Assembly: GCA_963810275.1 (NCBI GenBank)
Contig: CAWENF010000021.1
Span: forward strand, 96,001-160,000
Direction of reading: 5' to 3'
DNA from: an uncultured archaeon
GTDB lineage: Archaea > Thermoproteota > Bathyarchaeia > Bathyarchaeales > Bathycorpusculaceae
DNA: 64,000 nucleotides
Below, piece after piece: positions 31,640 to 41,635 of the stretch. The notes below the pieces were generated by a model, which saw nothing but the letters and a program-made list of their open reading frames with translations, did not search any database and had not been told where the DNA came from. The translations under genes were made by a program, and so were the position numbers. The stretch's first letter is position 1. Each line of letters begins with the position of its first letter.

Positions 31640-32530
31640 TTATTTTTTAAGTTTAACTTGGTTTTCCAGCCCGATTTTCGTTACTTCAACCAATTCAAGT
31701 TTCTCAAGTCGCTTAACAAGCCGCCAGAGACTCGTGCGGGGCATGTCCGGGAATTGTTGTCGGATTTCAGCTTCAAAAGCGCTGCCGCCTTTTTCGGCGA
31801 GAAAGTGAATGACTTTACGATCTTCATTCATCAGCTGGGGATTTTCGTTTAGGGCTTTTTTTAGGTTAAACTGAGGTTTGCGTTTTATTAAAAACATTGT
31901 AAAGGCAAGGGCAGCGCCTGCAACGCAGATTATTGCAACTATTATGTACTCTACAGGTAGGACATTAGAGTTAAGCGCAGCAGGGGTAGGGTAAGTTTGT
32001 TGCTCAGAAGTCAAAGGTAGAAGGTAGCTAATTTCCCATTGACCTGAAGGCAGGGCTAAAGAAACTTGGCTGTTTACGGTTTCTATAGAGGACGGTGCAT
32101 CACTCAGGTAGATTACCGTTGCGTTGGCAGGGAAGGCAACCGTGAGTTCGTATGGGTTCTCAACCTGAAGGGTCCAGACTTCGTTTGCTTTGCTGGTTAA
32201 GGTGTTGGTGTCATATTGTATTTGAGCTTTAGATGCTCCGAAAGTGTATATCGTCAAGGTTCTGTCGTCTATTTCATAGTCCATCACTAGCATGTTTTGG
32301 TCAAGCACCATCAAGTTTTCGATGTTTGGGCAAAGCAAGAGTGATTGGGTTTGAGGTGAATTGCTGTCTAAGGTTAGGGTTTGTATTACATGGACTAAGC
32401 CGTCTCGGTAGACTTGAACATCAGTCGAATCTATACTGGGTCCTGACTTCACGCTAGCAGCAAGCACTATAATTACTGCTATCGAAATAACGAACAGTGC
32501 CAACCACCATCTTGCGCGGTGAATTTTCAT
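31640..32530 (-). CDS. Membrane-anchored protein with extracellular beta domain and cytoplasmic winged helix
   Basis: Signal/TM segment, beta-rich ectodomain, second TM, then DRKVIHFLAEKGG..EAEIR..PRTSLWRLVKRLEK. Confidence 0.85.
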   Translation of the reverse strand: MKIHRARWWLALFVISIAVIIVLAASVKSGPSIDSTDVQVYRDGLVHVIQTLTLDSNSPQTQSLLLCPNIENLMVLDQNMLVMDYEIDDRTLTIYTFGASKAQIQYDTNTLTSKANEVWTLQVENPYELTVAFPANATVIYLSDAPSSIETVNSQVSLALPSGQWEISYLLPLTSEQQTYPTPAALNSNVLPVEYIIVAIICVAGAALAFTMFLIKRKPQFNLKKALNENPQLMNEDRKVIHFLAEKGGSAFEAEIRQQFPDMPRTSLWRLVKRLEKLELVEVTKIGLENQVKLKK

Positions 32531-32947
32531 TGGGGATTTCACTATAAGTTCAGTGTATGGTGAGATAAGTTTTGTGCAGCCCAAAAGACAGAGGAGGCCG
32601 TTTCAGCTTAGAACATTTACTTCATATTACCCCTCAAGTCATGCTCCACCTAACAATGTGTAGCCGTGAAGAGTGTAATAACCCAACGCAACACAATTCC
32701 GGCACCAATTCAGATTCTAAATTAACTAAACAGAAATTAAGCAAAACATGAACCGCTAAGTTAAAGCACCCAGACTAAATTGGATGTACTGGAAACAGAA
32801 CAGAGGCGCAGTGGCTAAAAGTTGAAAGCCTAATGGATCAAACAGAAGAACTCTGGTTCTAGGTGCAGTTGTATCGTGGTTTTTGCCTGCCGAAAATACA
32901 AATATTCAAACCTGTTTTCCTTAACATTAAATAAAAAATTGGAAGAT

Positions 32948-33241
32948 TTAGTTTACGGTCATTTGACCGAATTTTCCGACATTAAGCTGGACTTCGCCTT
33001 TAAAGCTGGTTACGTAGCCATTGTCGATTTTCACGTTATCGCCCACATTAACCTGCTCAATTTGCTCGTTCCATAACGTCAATTTAATGCTGCCTGATTC
33101 GTCTGCGATGACAGCATCGGCTATTCTGTAAGTTTCATCCTTATATCGTGACTTAACTTCACGGGTATCGCCTTTTTCGACAACTTTGCCTTCGACGCTG
33201 ACCCGTTTCATTCCATCAGCTAAATCTTTTATATCTGTCAA
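32948..33241 (-). CDS. ssb: Single-OB-fold ssDNA-binding protein
   Basis: IKDL..V.VEGKVVE..DESGSIKLTLWNEQ..NGYV..FKGEVQLNVGKFG. Confidence 0.93.
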   Translation of the reverse strand: MTDIKDLADGMKRVSVEGKVVEKGDTREVKSRYKDETYRIADAVIADESGSIKLTLWNEQIEQVNVGDNVKIDNGYVTSFKGEVQLNVGKFGQMTVN

Positions 33242-33360
33242 GCTACTTCACTTCTTCTAACTGATAGTAACGCTTTTCGTTTTCCAATCTTATAAGTGTT
33301 GCTAACTAGCTCAAAAAAGCCTAAAAAGAAGAAAAAGTTTGGGGTTTCCCCGTTTTCTGT

Positions 33361-34629
33361 TTATGCGTAGCCCAGCAGTAGAAAAATCAGCACAAACAAG
33401 GTGACAATTACACCGAGTGCTGAAGCCAAGATCTTCTTAGTCAACGAAAGCTCTGGTTTTATTGCGTCCACAACGAACACACAAAGTACGCCTAGCCAGA
33501 CGTAGGTGGCAACGAAAAGGAATGATGTTATGGCATTGAATATAGCTGTTGAGGCTTCTATGCTGCTGAACGCTGTCATGGCTGTGGCTGAGAGGCCCTC
33601 TGCCGCCATTGGTGGATACGTTATTGCACCATACCATGTGAAGGCCAAGCCTGTGGAAAGATCAAATGGATAGTATACGGCAGGCAACGCGGCGGTTGCA
33701 ACTAGGTTTAGTACTGCTCGGATGACTAAGACGACTAATGCTACGCCTACCGCGATGAACAAGGGTTTCCAGACCAAGTCAACCTTTAAGCCTTTCAGAA
33801 CAAGGTAGATGACGGCGGCTGTGAGTAGCCAAAGCACCAAGAACTGAAGCGCAACTGACTGCAGACTGGAGAAAACAATTACCATAGGATCGTTTTCCGC
33901 CAGAGACATGTACTGTCCACGGAAGAATAATGCGCTTATGCGCACGGTTATGTCATAGTTTTCTGGGTAAGTTAAATCCAAGCTGAGTTTAGTTATGTTG
34001 CTCCATGTAGGGTTGCCGTTCTCTGTCCAAGCGGGAGCATCGGGTCCGATGGGCACGGTTATATTGTTCCACTGCCCAATCAAAGAAGTATTAGACAACT
34101 CGTATGTCAAATCGTAAGTATAATAGTCAGCGTCGTTTAAGCTGTAAAGCGTTAACTGAGCGTTTTCTGGTGTAACACTGCTTGGATAAACCAGCTTCAA
34201 TATCATGGAGAGGTTTTGGAAGCCGTTTACGCTGCAGTCCACGTTAAATGCGTTGCTGATTGTCGCCGAAATATTCTGAGCATCTGCTGCTCTAAACTGA
34301 AGACTGCTTGTGCCGTATAAGTCCGGGTAATCCCCGAAGCCTGACACGAACACCGTGTAGTTTAGGTGGTCTGCTACGTCGGTTATGTTAACGCCTGAAC
34401 TTGCACTCCAGTTACCTGAAGTTGCTGAAGTGTATTCTTGGAATAGCCCCGGCTGCGGCGAAGTGACTTCCAAATTAGTTTTTGACAACTGGGCATATTC
34501 GTAGCCCATCTGTAAACCAATGAATAGGATAAGAACGATGATTGCGGCAAGGTATTTGGGGTTAGCTACTATTTTCTTAAAAGCCTTATGAGGTGCGTAA
34601 ATGATTTCTGCTATGTCGGCGAGAATCAA
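33361..34629 (-). CDS. Yip1-like multi-pass membrane protein with inserted extracellular beta domain
   Basis: IIYAPHKAFKKI start, TM helix, about 200 aa soluble beta region, then four TM helices. Confidence 0.7.
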   Translation of the reverse strand: MILADIAEIIYAPHKAFKKIVANPKYLAAIIVLILFIGLQMGYEYAQLSKTNLEVTSPQPGLFQEYTSATSGNWSASSGVNITDVADHLNYTVFVSGFGDYPDLYGTSSLQFRAADAQNISATISNAFNVDCSVNGFQNLSMILKLVYPSSVTPENAQLTLYSLNDADYYTYDLTYELSNTSLIGQWNNITVPIGPDAPAWTENGNPTWSNITKLSLDLTYPENYDITVRISALFFRGQYMSLAENDPMVIVFSSLQSVALQFLVLWLLTAAVIYLVLKGLKVDLVWKPLFIAVGVALVVLVIRAVLNLVATAALPAVYYPFDLSTGLAFTWYGAITYPPMAAEGLSATAMTAFSSIEASTAIFNAITSFLFVATYVWLGVLCVFVVDAIKPELSLTKKILASALGVIVTLFVLIFLLLGYA

Positions 34630-34780: not shown

Positions 34781-36289
34781 TTACATGCCTTGTTTTAGGC
34801 GGCGATAAGTCGAGTAGTCAACGTATTCCAAAAACTTGCTTTCAGCTTGGGATTTAACGTTGATTTTCTGCCGCCCCCTCTTATCCAAAAGCTGGCTGGT
34901 TGTACGCAAAACGTAGGCGTCACTGCCCGCGCCAGAGCCGTAACTTGCCACCAAGATGCTCTCTTCAGGTTTGGCAATGTCAAGAATGGCTGCTAAGCCA
35001 ATGAGGGAAGCGCCGCTGTAGGTGTTACCGAACTTTGTCATCTGTATGGCAGGCATGAACTGGTCTTCTTTGAAGCCTAGGTCTTTGGCGACACGCATAG
35101 GGAAGGTCGGGTTTGGCTGATGGGGCACAAAGTAATTTAGATCCTCTGGCTTTAGGTTGCATCGTTCCATGAGTTTGGAGGCGGCTTTTTTAACGTGTTT
35201 GTGGTAAGCTGGGTCGCCTGTGAATCTACCGCCGTGACTTGGGTAGGGTTCACCGTCTCTGCGCCAAAAATCAGGCGTATCAGAGGTGCAGCTGTACCAA
35301 CCTTCCACCTCGGCGATAACATCTTGTTTGCCAAAAATGTAGGCTGCACCACCGTAACCTACGAACATATCTAATTCGCCTCCGGGGCAACCGCGTGGGG
35401 CTGCCTGAGAGTTATCTGCTCCGATAACCATAGCGTAACGGATGTTAGATTTGGGGTAACTCACCAAAGCGCAAGCGTCTTTGAACATGCTGCTGCCTGC
35501 CTTGCAAGCGAATTCTGTGTCAACTGCATCTACACTCTGCATATCGCCGTCTTCCTCGCCCAGCTTGAGTACTTGGGCTACTTTGGCGGCTATTGGCTTT
35601 ACAGCATAGGGGTTTGATTCACTGCCAACATAGACTTTGCCCACCCAGCTACTGTCTATGCCTGAATGGATAAGCGCCAATTTGCCAGCTTCCACAGCTG
35701 CAGTCACAGAGTCCTCGTCGATAAATGGCACCGCACGCTCCAGATTTGTTTCTTTTATGCGAAATCTAGATGAGTAAACGCCGTAGCCTACAACGCCGGG
35801 CAACTCATAGTCATTGGTAGGCTGCACAATCTTGTATTCTTGATGAGGATAGTACTCGTCTGCCAGTGTGAACGCCAGCGAAATTGTGGGAATCATCTCA
35901 CGTTTACCAACAGAGTACCGTCTGCGAAAACGCGGCACAACTTCTCTACCCTCCAGCTTCGCTGGGTCGAAGTCTATGCTTCCACACATAGGCTGATCGG
36001 TTAAACGTGCGGGAACACGGATTTTGCCCCCGTGGAAAGATACGATGCCGTAGATATAGCTGCCCAACTTGGAGAACTTGTTTGTCGGTTCATTAATTAA
36101 TGTACATAGTTCAAGGGTGCCCTTATCATAAAATAGGTCCATGCTCTCCATTTTGCCATAGCTTTTACGTCCACATTTGCTGCAGTAATCACGCACTTCA
36201 AAGTATTCTTTACCGCAACAGCTGCATCTGCAAGCTTTAAGGCGGTCACCCAAATAGCTAACTCTACGCTCGATTGGTTCGCTGCTCAT
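34781..36289 (-). CDS. Hydroxymethylglutaryl-CoA synthase with N-terminal DUF35 (Zn-ribbon + OB) fusion
   Basis: N-terminal CSCC-x10-CSKC plus OB strands; HMGCS motifs GSESNPYAVKP, EFACKAG, HQPN, GNTYSG, SYGSGAGSD. Confidence 0.93.
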   Translation of the reverse strand: MSSEPIERRVSYLGDRLKACRCSCCGKEYFEVRDYCSKCGRKSYGKMESMDLFYDKGTLELCTLINEPTNKFSKLGSYIYGIVSFHGGKIRVPARLTDQPMCGSIDFDPAKLEGREVVPRFRRRYSVGKREMIPTISLAFTLADEYYPHQEYKIVQPTNDYELPGVVGYGVYSSRFRIKETNLERAVPFIDEDSVTAAVEAGKLALIHSGIDSSWVGKVYVGSESNPYAVKPIAAKVAQVLKLGEEDGDMQSVDAVDTEFACKAGSSMFKDACALVSYPKSNIRYAMVIGADNSQAAPRGCPGGELDMFVGYGGAAYIFGKQDVIAEVEGWYSCTSDTPDFWRRDGEPYPSHGGRFTGDPAYHKHVKKAASKLMERCNLKPEDLNYFVPHQPNPTFPMRVAKDLGFKEDQFMPAIQMTKFGNTYSGASLIGLAAILDIAKPEESILVASYGSGAGSDAYVLRTTSQLLDKRGRQKINVKSQAESKFLEYVDYSTYRRLKQGM

Positions 36290-37488
36290 TGTTTTTTATC
36301 TCCTAAAATGGTGGCAAAAGCCTTAGTTCCAAAACCTTCAAACTCCAAAACGCCACCGTACTTGAGCCCACCTTCCACGGCTACTTGGCGATCTGCCGCT
36401 TCCCCGCGGAGTTGACGGAAAACCTCGTAAATCATGGCTCCGCCTGTAGCGCCAAGCGGGTTACCATCTGCTTTTAATCCGCCATCGGTGTTAACGTAAA
36501 GTGGTTTGCCGCCGAACTCGTAGTGAAGCCTGCTTTTCTTGTAGCTTTCAAATATGCTTCTCCAAGCGACGCCAGGCTGGCAGAAGCCTAGGTCTTCGAG
36601 AATCGCCATCTCCATCATGGTTGACTGGTCGTTGACCTCCATAAGAGGGATTTCAGAAGCTGAGACGCCAGAACGATTAGATGCCTTGTTCATTGCTAGC
36701 TCTGCAGCTAAGAACCGGGTAAGGTCCGCTCTTGCGGGGTAGTTAAGGTAGTCAGTAGCGGAGCCTGTGGCTAGAACGTAGACTGGGTTGTCAGTCATTT
36801 TCTTCGCCACTTCCTCGCTGGCTAAAATAATTGCTGAGGCCCCGTCAGATATGGGTGCGAAGTCAAAAAGCCCCAAAGGTTTGTTAGCTGATTTGCGGGC
36901 GTCCACAACATGATTAATTGAGATACCACGCTGGAACTGGGCATACTTGTTTTTAGCGCCGTAAGCGTGATTTTTAACTGCAACCTGCGCAAGCGAAGTT
37001 TTGAAATCCTCTAAATCCTGCCCTGTTATGCCATATTTCTTGATGTAGGCACGCATCATTAGTTCATGGTTAGATTCAGGAGTGCCGCCAGCGAAGTAGC
37101 TCCATGGGTCCTCTAAGAGCATGAGGTCATCTCGGATTTTATCCCAGCGATCCGTCATTTTCTCGATGCCACCCACCAGCACAGTGTCGTAGATGCCGGC
37201 TTGTATTGCGCGGGAAGCCATCATCAACGCTGAGCTGAAGCTGCGGGTAACCTCCATAGGAACATGCAACTCTGTGAGTTCAGAGAGGAACCCCTCTTCT
37301 AGCCCCAACTTGTTGGTTATGGGTAAAAAGCAATCGGACATGTAGCAGGCTTCTAGATTTTTGCGTTCCATGCTACATTCGTTTGATGCGGCAAGCCAAG
37401 CTTCCTCGATGAGTTTCTCGGGCTCTTTGCCGTAGTGCTCACCGAACTTGGTTCTGCCGACAGCAACTATGGCTGGGCGATTCTGCAT
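36286..37488 (-). CDS. Thiolase-fold protein lacking the canonical catalytic residues
   Basis: GRTKFGE, VGGIEKMTD, PISDGASA, VNTDGGLKA, GATG. Catalytic Cys and His positions are substituted (see findings). Confidence 0.92.
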   Translation of the reverse strand: MQNRPAIVAVGRTKFGEHYGKEPEKLIEEAWLAASNECSMERKNLEACYMSDCFLPITNKLGLEEGFLSELTELHVPMEVTRSFSSALMMASRAIQAGIYDTVLVGGIEKMTDRWDKIRDDLMLLEDPWSYFAGGTPESNHELMMRAYIKKYGITGQDLEDFKTSLAQVAVKNHAYGAKNKYAQFQRGISINHVVDARKSANKPLGLFDFAPISDGASAIILASEEVAKKMTDNPVYVLATGSATDYLNYPARADLTRFLAAELAMNKASNRSGVSASEIPLMEVNDQSTMMEMAILEDLGFCQPGVAWRSIFESYKKSRLHYEFGGKPLYVNTDGGLKADGNPLGATGGAMIYEVFRQLRGEAADRQVAVEGGLKYGGVLEFEGFGTKAFATILGDKKQ

Positions 37489-37799: not shown

Positions 37800-39194
37800 T
37801 TATATAGTGCGGTTAACTTCGTTTTCTAGGATTTGTTGCTTTATTTCTTCGGTTAAAGCCGCAAGTTTTTCGCTCAACTCCACTGGGTAAAATGGCGCGT
37901 TAACGAGAGCATGATATTTAAGCGGCAGTTTGGATAGGTTCTCAGCTGCAACATGGCGGATCTTCTCAAGCGCAGGCAAATCATAAACTAACTCGCCGCG
38001 CTCAATCACTTTAACTAGAAGCGGGGTGCCCAAGACGGGTTCATCAGCCAATGCAATCACATCTTTTAAGAAGCTGCCATCAGCATCAAAGATACGGTAA
38101 ACCTGTTTTCTGCCCGGCAAAGTAATCTTGTCTTTGCTAAGCTTCATAATCGGCGTAAAGCTGCCATCGGAGTTCTGAGTTTCGCACAGCTTATAGACAC
38201 CGTCGAGGTAGGGACGGTCGCTACTGGTGCCCATCTTTGTACCCACGCCGAAAGAGTCAATCGGCGCCTCCGAGAAAAGCAGTTCTTGGATTTTATATTC
38301 GTCGAGGTCACCGCTGGCAAAAATTTTGGTGAAGTTCAAACCATGTGAATCAAGTATTATCCTAACTTTCTTGCTTATCTCAGCTAAGTCGCCGCTATCC
38401 AGCCGGACCCCACCAAGCTTGATGCCCTGCGCCATCAACTCTTTACCGACCACCGAGGCTTTCTCGGCTCCGGCAATGTCGTCGTAAGTATCTATCAGAA
38501 GAATACATTTATTGGGGAAAGTTTTGGCAAATGCCCGGAAGGCTTCTATTTCTTTTTGATAAGACATGATGAAGCTATGTGCCATTGTGCCAAAAACGGG
38601 GATTCCGTAAGCCAACCCTGCTAATACATTGCTTGTGCCTTGGCATCCTGCGATATAGCTACTGCGCGCCACTTTAAGCCCTGCGTCAATGCCGGGTTCA
38701 CGGCGCAAGCCGAATTCGATGACGGCTTTACCTTTAGCTGCTTGGATGACGCGGCTGGCCTTGGTGGCAATCATGGTTTGGAGGTTGATGCTGTTTAAGA
38801 GGAAAGTTTCGGCGAGTTGCGCTTCGATGATGGGGGCGGTTATGCGTAGCAGGGGCTCGTTTGGAAAGACTACTGTTCCTTCTGGGAGTGCCCAGACTTC
38901 GCCTGAGAAGCGGAAGTTTTTGAGGTAGTTAAGGAAGTCATTTTTGAAGCCCTGCTTTTTGAGGAATGTGAGATGTTCTTCGGTAAATTTGATGTATTGG
39001 AGGTATCCAAGGGCTTCTTGCAGGCCTGCAAAAAGGAAGTAGCTTCGGTTTTCTGGGAGGCGGCGGATGAAGAGGTCAAAGGTGGCGGTCTCGAAATTTT
39101 TGTTGTCAAAGTAGGCTGCACACATGGCTAGTTCGTAGAAGTCTGTGAAGAGGCTCATGTTCTCCTCTTTTAGGGCATTCAGAAACGGTTTCAT
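37800..39194 (-). CDS. pncB: Nicotinate phosphoribosyltransferase
   Basis: TDFYELAM, EFGLRR, GTMAHS, LIDTYD, VRLDSGD, FGVGT. Confidence 0.97.
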   Translation of the reverse strand: MKPFLNALKEENMSLFTDFYELAMCAAYFDNKNFETATFDLFIRRLPENRSYFLFAGLQEALGYLQYIKFTEEHLTFLKKQGFKNDFLNYLKNFRFSGEVWALPEGTVVFPNEPLLRITAPIIEAQLAETFLLNSINLQTMIATKASRVIQAAKGKAVIEFGLRREPGIDAGLKVARSSYIAGCQGTSNVLAGLAYGIPVFGTMAHSFIMSYQKEIEAFRAFAKTFPNKCILLIDTYDDIAGAEKASVVGKELMAQGIKLGGVRLDSGDLAEISKKVRIILDSHGLNFTKIFASGDLDEYKIQELLFSEAPIDSFGVGTKMGTSSDRPYLDGVYKLCETQNSDGSFTPIMKLSKDKITLPGRKQVYRIFDADGSFLKDVIALADEPVLGTPLLVKVIERGELVYDLPALEKIRHVAAENLSKLPLKYHALVNAPFYPVELSEKLAALTEEIKQQILENEVNRTI

Positions 39195-39541
39195 GGTTAT
39201 GTAGAGTTAGTGTTTGTGATTTAATTCTTTTCGGAGATTCAAAAATTGAATAATACGGAAAACGCGAGCTTTTTTGGTGTTCTAAGAGTTATTTATAAAA
39301 CCGTACAAAGCGCGACTTTGGTTAAAGGACGGCTATGCAGCTACTGTAACTATTGAACATGTGTTTTGCAATTGGGAAATCTTCATTGCGCTCTTAATAG
39401 TGTGACTTTAGCTTTCGAATTCCGAAACGGAAAAATCGAAGGAGACAACTAAGTCCAAAAAGCCTCATGCTTTAAGGCGTCAAGGACAACTTAAAAGAGG
39501 ATGCAGCTACATGGGCTTCATACCATAATAAACCATGTTTT

Positions 39542-41635
39542 TTAACGTTCTATTGAGATTTTGCTTATTCCAGCTTCTTTTTCCAAAACAACGACGTGGT
39601 CGCCCTTTGCCGCAAAAGCTTCGCTATGAGTGACAGCAATAATCTGCTCGATAGCTTTGAATCGGCTGATTGCCTCTGCCAACCTCTCGATGCTTCCGTC
39701 TTCGCTGCCTAAGTTCTCAGTAGGCTCATCCAACATAAGCATACTCAACCCATGCCCCGTGCGGCTTTGCATAATAAGCTGTCCCAAACCGAGACGGTAC
39801 GCAAACGCCAGCAAAGTACGCTCGCCCCCAGAGAGGTTGCTAACTTCACGGTTTACGCCTGCCTCGCTTTTTACATAAGGAGTGTAGCTTTCGTCAATAA
39901 CCACGTTAAGCATTTGGGTTTCGCCTCCTACGAGGCTGTCAAGCACTTGTTGTACAAAGTTTTGCAGTACCTTGACGAATTCCATGCGTAGTTTAGGCTG
40001 GATACTTCGGTAGGCGTCTCTGATAGCGCTTAGCAACTCGACGGTGAGGCGGATTTTGTCCATGCGCTCCAGCTTCTGCTGCGCTTGGTCTATGCGGTCT
40101 TTGGTGTCGTCTAAGCGGCGGGCTAAGTCGGCTTTTCGGTTCTGCTTAGTCTTCAAATCGGACTGCACGGCATAGTATACCTGCATTGCTTGGTCTTTCC
40201 GGATTTTAGATGCCTGCAACTCGTCAAAGTTAAACCCTACGATTTCCGCTTGGAGTTTTTCAAGTTTGATACGTTGGTCAGCTTCAACCCGACGTTGAAC
40301 CTCAAGACGGTCGTTTAGCTTCTTGAGGTTGCTTTCCTCTTCGGCGATACGTGCTTTGAAGTCCCCGCTTCGGGCGAGGCATTGCTGGAGGCTGCTGATG
40401 GCTTCCGAAGCGTCACGTTTGTTTTTTTGCAATTCAGCTGCATCTATTCGGAGGCGGTTTACGAGTTTTTCCCGCTCGTCATTATCGTGTTGGATGCTAT
40501 GTAACAGGTCAGTGCGATAATCGCCACTTAGTGCCTGGCTGCATAGTGGGCATTCCCCGCCTCCGGTACCCAGCTGCAACATGCGTTTTTGGTCCTGCTG
40601 GAGGCTGCGACTAGTGGCTTCCTGCTCAGCGCGAAGGGAAGTGATTTTTTCATCAAACCCAGCAAGAAGCGTGTTCAGCTGGTCAAGCTGTTGACATGAT
40701 GGCAACCCAGCTTGCTCCAGTTTGGTGGTGCATAGCTTGATTTGGCTATCCAGCGAGGTTTGCCGCTGCAGAAAGTTGCTGATAATAATTTTTTTGCCCT
40801 CAACCTGCTCAGCCAAATCCGCTACAGAGCGGGCAGTGTTGGTAAGATTGGCGCTTAAGCGTGCTTCTTGACGTTTAAGCTCCTCCATAGCTTGCTTTTT
40901 GTCCTCCAGCCGCTTCAGCTCAGTCTCCGCTTCGTCCCAGCCGTTTTTGGCTCTGGAAACTCGCTGCTCAGCCGTTTCAAGGTCCATCTCGAGCCCCATA
41001 AATTCCTCGCTGGCTCGGTTGTAGTCAGCGTTAAGTTTTTCAATGCTGTTGACGTCAGGGTCTTTTTGAAAGAAGCTCAGCTCATTTTCATAATCTCGCC
41101 TATACTGTGCAAGATGGGTCCATGCGACTTCGTAGTCAGCTAGCCCGAACAGTTGGTCAAGGCGTGTTTGCCGGTCTCTTGGTTTGGCGTCGAGGAGCTC
41201 CTTAAGGTGTTCCTGCCTGAACCAAACGATTTCTCGGTACAATTCCCTGTCTAAGCCAGTTATAGCTCGGAGTTGCTCGGCGATGGCGTCGGTTTTCATG
41301 CTTGCCACAAGCTGCTCGTCCTCGTAGAGTTTGAGTTGCTCGATATCTTGCAGTATGCTCTTACCTCTCCGGCGCAGTCCGCGAGTGAGTTTGTAGATGT
41401 TTCCGTTCTGAGTGAACTGCAAAGTAACCTTGCAGCAATCACAACCTTCTCGCAGTAGGTAATCAAACGTTCTGCCGCTCACAATATCGCCAAACAGCGC
41501 AAAGTCTATTGCATATAGCAGGCTAGATTTGCCGCATCCAACGCCGCCCACGACGCAGTTGAAGCCATGCGAGAAGAGCACGGTTGATTTGGTGTGACTT
41601 CGGATGCTTTCTAAGACTAGGGCGTCGATTTTCAC
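39542..41635 (-). CDS. rad50: Rad50/SbcC-type SMC-like ATPase
   Basis: Walker A GGVGCGKSS, coiled coil with CPLC zinc hook, LSGGE, LDEPT, VTH. Confidence 0.93.
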   Translation of the reverse strand: MKIDALVLESIRSHTKSTVLFSHGFNCVVGGVGCGKSSLLYAIDFALFGDIVSGRTFDYLLREGCDCCKVTLQFTQNGNIYKLTRGLRRRGKSILQDIEQLKLYEDEQLVASMKTDAIAEQLRAITGLDRELYREIVWFRQEHLKELLDAKPRDRQTRLDQLFGLADYEVAWTHLAQYRRDYENELSFFQKDPDVNSIEKLNADYNRASEEFMGLEMDLETAEQRVSRAKNGWDEAETELKRLEDKKQAMEELKRQEARLSANLTNTARSVADLAEQVEGKKIIISNFLQRQTSLDSQIKLCTTKLEQAGLPSCQQLDQLNTLLAGFDEKITSLRAEQEATSRSLQQDQKRMLQLGTGGGECPLCSQALSGDYRTDLLHSIQHDNDEREKLVNRLRIDAAELQKNKRDASEAISSLQQCLARSGDFKARIAEEESNLKKLNDRLEVQRRVEADQRIKLEKLQAEIVGFNFDELQASKIRKDQAMQVYYAVQSDLKTKQNRKADLARRLDDTKDRIDQAQQKLERMDKIRLTVELLSAIRDAYRSIQPKLRMEFVKVLQNFVQQVLDSLVGGETQMLNVVIDESYTPYVKSEAGVNREVSNLSGGERTLLAFAYRLGLGQLIMQSRTGHGLSMLMLDEPTENLGSEDGSIERLAEAISRFKAIEQIIAVTHSEAFAAKGDHVVVLEKEAGISKISIER

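Follow-up and report, generated by a model that had tools for sequence, protein, structure and literature searches.

A thiolase-fold protein without thiolase catalytic residues is co-inherited with a DUF35-HMG-CoA synthase fusion in an order of Bathyarchaeia

The window analysed here is a 64,000-nucleotide stretch of contig CAWENF010000021.1 (positions 96,001 to 160,000 of the forward strand) from the genome of an uncultured archaeon of the Bathyarchaeia, GCA_963810275.1 (2.26 Mb, 92.6% complete; G000 below). On its minus strand the window carries two open reading frames (ORFs), of which the first encodes a 400-amino-acid (aa) thiolase-like protein that lacks all residues used by thiolases in catalysis, here called the dead thiolase, and the second a 502-aa fusion of a DUF35 module to an archaeal-type 3-hydroxy-3-methylglutaryl-coenzyme A (HMG-CoA) synthase (HMGCS). 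The stop codon of the dead thiolase gene overlaps the start codon of the fusion gene in the sequence ATGA, by which the two genes are translationally coupled. Strong purifying selection acts on the dead thiolase, which within the order to which the organism belongs is strictly co-inherited with the fusion gene. The protein is probably an inert thiolase-fold subunit which has been kept because the DUF35-fused, complex-type HMGCS depends on a thiolase-shaped partner. The original prediction, made from the letters of the DNA, had described the 400-aa ORF as intact and overlapping the next gene by ATGA, with which both the ORF coordinates and the coding-strand sequence agree. The features of the gene pair, in window coordinates, are as follows.

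36286..37488, minus strand: dead thiolase, a 400-aa thiolase-fold protein without any thiolase catalytic residues (Pfam, NCBIfam, 6esq_A, AlphaFold2, Foldseek)
37225..37257, minus strand: former nucleophile loop MEVTRSFSSAL, residues 78-88, where a 4-residue deletion takes out the catalytic Cys (alignment and translation)
36622..36633, minus strand: NDQS replacing HDCF, residues 286-289 (alignment and translation)
36442..36465, minus strand: GNPLGATG replacing GHxxGATG, residues 342-349 (alignment and translation)
36334..36345, minus strand: EFEG replacing NxGG, residues 382-385 (alignment and translation)
36286..36289, minus strand: ATGA overlap of the dead thiolase stop and the fusion gene start (coding-strand sequence)
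34781..36289, minus strand: DUF35::HMGCS fusion gene, 502 aa (ORF)
35870..36289, minus strand: DUF35 module of the fusion, residues 1-140, a CxxC...CxxC zinc ribbon followed by an OB-like part (phmmer match to 6esq_E, conserved Cys)
34781..35869, minus strand: archaeal-type HMGCS module of the fusion, residues 141-502, with E224, C262, H390 and N422 intact (NF003274, 6esq_I)

Catalytic motifs and fold of the dead thiolase and its partner

The dead thiolase was aligned with chain A of PDB entry 6ESQ, the thiolase/HMGCS/DUF35 complex of Methanothermococcus thermolithotrophicus, and with the canonical thiolase encoded on contig C4 of its own genome. The nucleophile loop reads MEVTR----SFSSAL against RIEAACGSGGVAL, with a 4-residue gap that deletes the catalytic Cys, which is likewise deleted relative to RIEAACGSGG of the aligned thiolase. 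HDCF is replaced by NDQS, which removes both the His and the acid/base Cys, the change of GHPVGATG to GNPLGATG removes the His of the GH motif, and NIGG has become EFEG so that the NxGG loop is gone. The earlier observation that every thiolase catalytic motif is altered thus holds in the translation and in both alignments.

The overall architecture of a thiolase is retained. Pfam recognises Thiolase_C_1 (9e-24) and Thiolase_N (1e-10) in the 400-aa protein, and the NCBIfam thiolase models match it below their cut-offs (NF004720, 275 against 420; NF053570, 219 against 600). Its best solved relative is 6esq_A (E 1e-44). AlphaFold2, run on an alignment of 102 rows, gave a model with a predicted local distance difference test (pLDDT) score of 95.8, and the top Foldseek match of this model is again 6esq_A with template modelling (TM) scores of 0.92/0.94 and a root-mean-square deviation of 1.9 Å. 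PDB entries 6ok1 and 5ab6, from the group of the Ltp2/Sal aldolases and TbSLP discussed below, are also among its fold matches. On the strength of the pLDDT and the superposition the thiolase fold is predicted to be intact, and specifically to be that of the thiolase subunit of the Methanothermococcus complex.

The HMGCS module of the fusion scores 367 bits against NF003274 (cut-off 244), in a match that starts at about residue 183, and aligns with 6esq_I at 5e-75. E224, C262, H390 and N422 match identical residues of 6esq_I in the alignment and do not vary in any of the 64 aligned fusions, in keeping with the prediction that the partner enzyme retains its Glu, Cys and His. The fusion is the sole HMGCS above cut-off in G000. 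Its DUF35 module matches 6esq_E, the Pfam DUF35 chain of the complex, with a phmmer E-value of 4.8e-7 over residues 17-89, and of the ribbon Cys C22, C25 and C36 are invariant among the 64 fusions and C39 is present in at least 90%; the Pfam DUF35 models remain under cut-off (zf-ChsH2, 18 against 23.2 bits; OB_ChsH2_C, 16.8 against 27.1 bits).

Conservation of the altered motifs

The altered motifs are found in all of the 120 closest database homologues (72-100% identity), of which the named ones are labelled Bathyarchaeia, Bathyarchaeota or Nitrososphaerota, and in 20/20 orthologues fetched from other genomes of the class, where a single one (L029) is more divergent and reads R----CFSS, CDPS and GSPLGAKG. 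Clustering at 50% identity leaves essentially a single full-length representative of the family (P0121, 65% identity); the match after it, P0124, is 42% identical, and a search of genome contigs with P0124 found only two distant loci. The substitutions are therefore common to the Bathyarchaeia orthologues, as one of the proposed checks had asked, and since the gene is also present in 71 of 81 genomes of the order, lineage-specific decay or a pseudogene is ruled out. Identity to the window pair is only slightly lower for the dead thiolase than for the fusion of the same genome, at 76% and 83% respectively in G161, 68% and 73% in G082, 56% and 72% in G020, and 57% and 66% in G142.

Conservation was counted over 43 rows of the dead clade, in which positions conserved in at least 95% were taken as clade-specific where active thiolases do not share them. 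There are 46 positions conserved jointly with active thiolases, 51 conserved in the clade only and 8 which have switched from one residue to another (R82, F84, S130, E142, S289, N343, E382 and E384). In the remnant of the nucleophile loop R82 and S83 are invariant or nearly so. At the site of the HDCF His (position 286) Tyr is found in 23 rows, Asn in 19, including the window, and Cys in 1, and the site of the HDCF Cys (position 288) is Gln in 42/43, followed by S289 in 43/43. N343 is present in 42/43 and E382 and E384 each in 43/43. No Cys is invariant: C48 occurs in 41/43, C53 in 26/43 and C92 in 40/43, where the window protein has Ser. A replacement nucleophile drawn from the Cys of YMSDCF is accordingly rejected at the level of the alignment, neither C48 nor C53 being invariant. 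The only invariant His are H141 and H174, the latter also present in active thiolases. These comparative data, together with the predicted fold and the linkage to HMGCS described below, favour the originally proposed reading of a retained pseudoenzyme, be it as a scaffold, as a CoA-binding or as a regulatory subunit.

Linkage to HMGCS within the order

Of 81 genomes sampled from the order, 71 contain exactly one orthologue of the dead thiolase (E <= 1e-100). The full-length DUF35::HMGCS fusion is present in the same 71 genomes, and both genes are missing from the same 10, which bears out the predicted coupling of the thiolase-like gene to the fusion. A comparison of coordinates places the two genes next to each other, thiolase first, in 69 of the 71, and in the remaining two (G128 and G137) they are on separate contigs, at the ends of these.

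The genomes without the pair are natural knock-outs, of which G014, G044, G050, G130, G134 and G122 were looked at, the remaining four being G136, G152, G158 and G166. G014, G044 and G050 belong to three genera (loci L068-L070, for G050, G014 and G044) and encode a stand-alone HMGCS of 454-466 aa in place of the fusion and dead thiolase. The G014 enzyme, the one of the three that was scanned, is closest to the haloarchaeal/bacterial stand-alone type NF041302, with 312 bits where that model's cut-off is 800. It looks as though the HMGCS type has been replaced in these three genomes, whose sole thiolase is an orthologue (63-66%) of the canonical thiolase of G000 and is accompanied by a free DUF35 protein. 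G130 has a classical 352-aa HMGCS adjoining a thiolase with active motifs, and G134 a 355-aa HMGCS beside a Thiolase_N match. G122 (98% complete) gave no match to an archaeal HMGCS model at E <= 1e-10, and HMG-CoA reductase is present. The dead thiolase is present wherever the fused HMGCS is, and is absent where another HMGCS type is found in place of the latter, which ties its role to HMGCS.

Source of acetoacetyl-CoA

G000 encodes two thiolase-fold genes, the dead one and a canonical thiolase of 393 aa on contig C4 (C4:92108-93259). The latter carries all motifs (RIEAACGSG, EVHDCF, GHPVGATG and NIGG) and scores 498 bits against a cut-off of 420. It is followed by a free 133-aa DUF35 protein with an ATGA overlap of its own, and the pair spans C4:92087-93666 (L003:8088-9667), next to two genes which by eye resemble Fe-S assembly genes (SufC/SufBD-like). 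The original prediction held that acetoacetyl-CoA must come from elsewhere and suggested a search for an active paralogue; the C4 thiolase/DUF35 pair answers to this and is the likely source of acetoacetyl-CoA in G000. The genome contains one HMG-CoA reductase, which indicates that the mevalonate pathway is in use. In the order as a whole, at least one further Thiolase_N match is present in 68 of the 71 genomes that carry the dead thiolase. Where the second thiolase locus was looked at, it is of the archaeal type in G000 and G032 and of a bacterial type (433-436 aa) in G114 and G020.

Thiolases are obligate dimers. As G000 encodes both a dead and a canonical thiolase, the two could in principle form a heterodimer in the manner of ketosynthase and chain-length factor (KS-CLF), with the dead subunit tethering the active one to the fusion and channelling being kept. 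Such an arrangement is highly improbable since the second thiolase is not of one kind across the genomes: it is archaeal in some and bacterial in others, and none was found in G082, G026 and G141. The C4-type pair moreover persists unchanged in genomes that have no dead thiolase, and the dead and C4 thiolases, only 32-35% identical, fall into different clades of the tree described below.

Evolution of the dead clade

In a quick IQ-TREE search over 61 rows the dead thiolases form a monophyletic clade with a Shimodaira-Hasegawa-like approximate likelihood ratio test (SH-aLRT) support of 100, a long stem (0.82 changes per column) and short inner branches. This clade is nested within a 99-supported clade that includes thiolases with active motifs encoded beside DUF35::HMGCS fusions (L030-L032 and L035), and the fusion therefore predates the loss of catalysis. 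Fusions paired with dead thiolases differ from those paired with active ones by a 4-residue insert before PGGELD, a shorter linker between DUF35 and HMGCS, a second CxxC that is complete, and an extension at the C-terminus. The same branch has seen changes in both proteins of the pair.

One further thiolase encoded beside a DUF35::HMGCS fusion, L033 (G004:C2:187408-191562), is half degenerate: its loop shows the same deletion of 4 residues and it reads HDAT and DVEG, with both His kept. The quick free tree placed L033 with the active sister group. A tree in which it was constrained to join the dead clade is 15.5 log-likelihood units better and is not rejected by the approximately unbiased (AU) test (p 0.725), for which reason an independent second origin is not claimed for it. 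Stepwise loss that began with a single deletion is therefore conceivable from the sequences, and L033 may be an intermediate toward the dead clade.

Proposed role of the dead thiolase

The dead thiolase and the fusion would assemble as in 6ESQ, with DUF35 as the bridge between HMGCS and the dead thiolase. The latter would still provide the oligomeric core and its half of a composite CoA-binding chamber at the HMGCS-thiolase interface, and the HMGCS module would make HMG-CoA from acetyl-CoA and free acetoacetyl-CoA. The latter would be supplied by an unlinked active thiolase, namely the C4 thiolase/DUF35 pair in G000 and a bacterial-type thiolase in some relatives, which would imply that the substrate channelling of the ancestral complex has been given up. 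A published report, which cites Vogeli 2018 on these points, states that archaeal HMGCS is inactive and the thiolase insoluble when each is expressed alone, and that the archaeal complex has a fused CoA-binding chamber at the interface of the two (PMC12960953). Given this interdependence, an obligate non-catalytic subunit of the HMGCS complex is the most economical reading of the dead thiolase and, on balance, a probable one; its assembly into the complex, its contribution to CoA binding and its inactivity are inferred.

Several observations weigh against this reading. The former active-site positions R82, Q288, S289, N343, E382 and E384 are fixed (42-43/43) and not relaxed, and new polar or charged residues that are held in this way could mean a new ligand or catalytic site as opposed to a filled pocket. 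The differences between fusions that accompany dead and active thiolases suggest that the complex may be remodelled beyond a simple loss. Finally, no other thiolase was found with Thiolase_N in G082 (95% complete), G026 (97%) and G141 (59%), or with Thiolase_C_1 in G082 and G026, and a search with 3HCDH_N gave no match in G026 at E <= 1e-5 and two weak ones of 26-30 bits in G082. This absence may be due to incomplete assemblies.

The main rival is a neo-functionalised subunit, in which the remodelled pocket serves as a new catalytic or ligand-sensing site; the protein could then be an acyl-CoA-binding regulator of HMGCS or a Cys-free acid/base enzyme acting on a CoA thioester. A long stem branch followed by slow evolution is what such a change might leave behind, as are the 51 clade-specific and 8 switched positions with newly charged residues (R82, E142, E382 and E384) at former catalytic positions. 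There is also a precedent in the Ltp2 and Sal aldolases, DUF35-associated thiolase-fold proteins which lack the Cys and are enzymes according to PMC12329534. The rival is nonetheless rather unlikely, in that the position of the aldolase Tyr varies between Tyr, Asn and Cys in the dead clade and the site of the Sal Cys is Gln, no Cys is invariant and the two invariant His include one common to active thiolases. The strict co-inheritance with HMGCS, and the joint loss of the pair where a stand-alone HMGCS is found, also tie the role to HMGCS itself.

The apparent lack of another thiolase in the near-complete genomes G082 and G026 could alternatively point to residual chemistry, where the complex would still form acetoacetyl-CoA by means of unconventional residues or in the HMGCS active site. 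Cys-less thiolases beside intact HMGCS genes in other archaeal operons (see below) fit this as well. It is very unlikely since none of the required residues is left and no invariant nucleophile has taken the place of the Cys, and one of the lost residues is essential on its own: the H284A exchange in the HDxF motif of the Methanothermococcus thiolase abolishes HMG-CoA formation (PMC12960953). Incompleteness of metagenome-assembled genomes can also explain G082 and G026.

Relation to known systems and occurrence elsewhere

The three modules of the window pair have their best matches in chains A, I and E of the Methanothermococcus complex, and like the latter the HMGCS keeps its E-C-H-N residues. 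The pair differs from it in that the thiolase has lost the Cys, HDCF, GH and NxGG and that HMGCS carries DUF35 as a fusion at its N-terminus. The order of the genes is thiolase followed by fusion, as opposed to HMGCS-thiolase-DUF35 in L034, L037 and the metagenome loci described below.

Bacterial tripartite systems in which one of two thiolase-fold subunits is dead and yet retained include PhlABC (PpATase), MucABC (SmaATase) and PfACAT/HMGS-DUF35, and the Pseudomonas fluorescens system also contains an HMGS-DUF35 fusion (PMC12960953). The polarity is reversed in these systems, where the HMGS-like subunit is dead and the ACAT-like subunit bears the Cys, whereas in the Bathyarchaeia pair the ACAT-like subunit is dead, the HMGCS is intact and the setting is primary metabolism (PMC12960953 for the bacterial systems). 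Neither hallmark of the PhlABC/MucABC type, an HMGS-like subunit without E-C-H-N and an ACAT-like subunit with Cys, is found in the window pair. All described variants of the tripartite architecture are of this opposite polarity, and a literature search, outside of which lay supplements and most subscription journals, found no publication on a dead thiolase beside a live archaeal HMGCS. Passages of a preprint on fatty acids in S. acidocaldarius report multiple thiolase/DUF35 pairs per archaeal genome and do not mention inactive ones.

The steroid side-chain aldolases Ltp2 and Sal and TbSLP share with the dead thiolase an SCP2-thiolase fold without the nucleophile Cys, and Ltp2 and Sal are associated with DUF35; the aldolase motif has Tyr at the site of the HDCF His (YDHF or YDCY) together with a Cys in Sal or a second Tyr in Ltp2 (PMC12329534). 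About half of the dead clade likewise has Tyr at this site. The Tyr is however not conserved in the clade, Gln occupies the site of the following catalytic His or Cys, and the partner is an active HMGCS and not a hydratase. Because position 286 varies and position 288 is Gln, an aldolase mechanism does not fit: compared at these two positions the dead thiolase does not have the Ltp2/Sal residues, and an aldolase of this type is ruled out. Thiolase-like protein type 1 (TLP1) of Mycobacterium smegmatis, which is unrelated to HMGCS or DUF35, reportedly also lacks the catalytic residues. It too stands apart from active thiolases, and differs in being monomeric (PMC3406046).

Thiolases without the nucleophile Cys are not restricted to the Bathyarchaeia order. 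Of the 124 full-length representatives of 50% clusters that lie closest to the query, 48 have C-H-C-H-N at the five catalytic columns of an automatic alignment, and some of the Cys-less clusters have source names of Thermoplasmatota/Thermoplasmata or Heimdallarchaeaceae. A search of metagenome contigs with one Cys-less, Thermoplasmatota-named representative (P0396) returned 46 loci, of which 41 were analysed (L073-L113), and 37 thiolase ORFs passed the length filter. The nucleophile Cys is kept in 7 of these 37 and missing in the other 30 (EASTASG, EAGGASG, EAGDASG and so on), and of the 35 that cover the GH position 23 also lack its His; with a Cys-less query the sample is biased, and the proportions do not stand for frequencies. 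The loci are classical HMGCS-thiolase-DUF35 operons whose aligned HMGCS keep E, C, H and N in 30/30. Dead thiolases beside live HMGCS thus recur outside the order, by substitution and not by deletion.

A bolder proposal would extend this to several archaeal phyla, comprising the present order, the Thermoplasmatota-named clusters and perhaps Heimdallarchaeia. Lineages that have no other thiolase would then enter the mevalonate pathway without one, with acetoacetyl-CoA or HMG-CoA arising by an undescribed route in which the pocket of R82, Q288, N343, E382 and E384 takes part or senses the substrate. This is distinctly improbable as a whole.

As a separate observation, two genomes carry a second thiolase-like gene beside a 472-473-aa HMGCS-like ORF (G170:C1:27504-29646 and G177:C4:38687-40847) with 33-34% identity to the HMGCS part of the fusion; these may be further thiolase/HMGS-like pairs.

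Genomic context and transcription

The genes that flank the pair (window 31640-34629 and 37800-41635) encode a nicotinate phosphoribosyltransferase (NAPRTase), an SMC/Rad50-like ATPase, an Ssb-like OB-fold protein, a 422-aa membrane protein without a Pfam match and a DUF7343-like protein, and they provide no functional link to the HMGCS/thiolase pair. In a comparison with metatranscriptomes one run contained 0.13 of the sampled words. Three contigs of 151 nucleotides from one metatranscriptome library match the window with 100% identity at 34852-35002, 35068-35218 and 36604-36754, so that both genes are matched. They are a weak hint, too little to indicate transcription or co-transcription, and the uncovered parts are uninformative.

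Biological significance

For dead thiolases, the source label "acetyl-CoA C-acetyltransferase" claims more than can be supported from the sequence, and any reconstruction of the pathway in which these proteins are counted as the thiolase step would be wrong. The genomes in which no other thiolase was found raise the question of where their acetoacetyl-CoA originates. The thiolase/HMGCS/DUF35 complex is thought to channel the unfavourable product of the thiolase into HMG-CoA, whose formation is the first committed step toward the membrane lipids of archaea. In an entire, abundant order of Bathyarchaeia this architecture persists with the thiolase half switched off, which would imply that HMGCS needs its partner for something beyond channelling, for instance for assembly or for the CoA chamber that they share.

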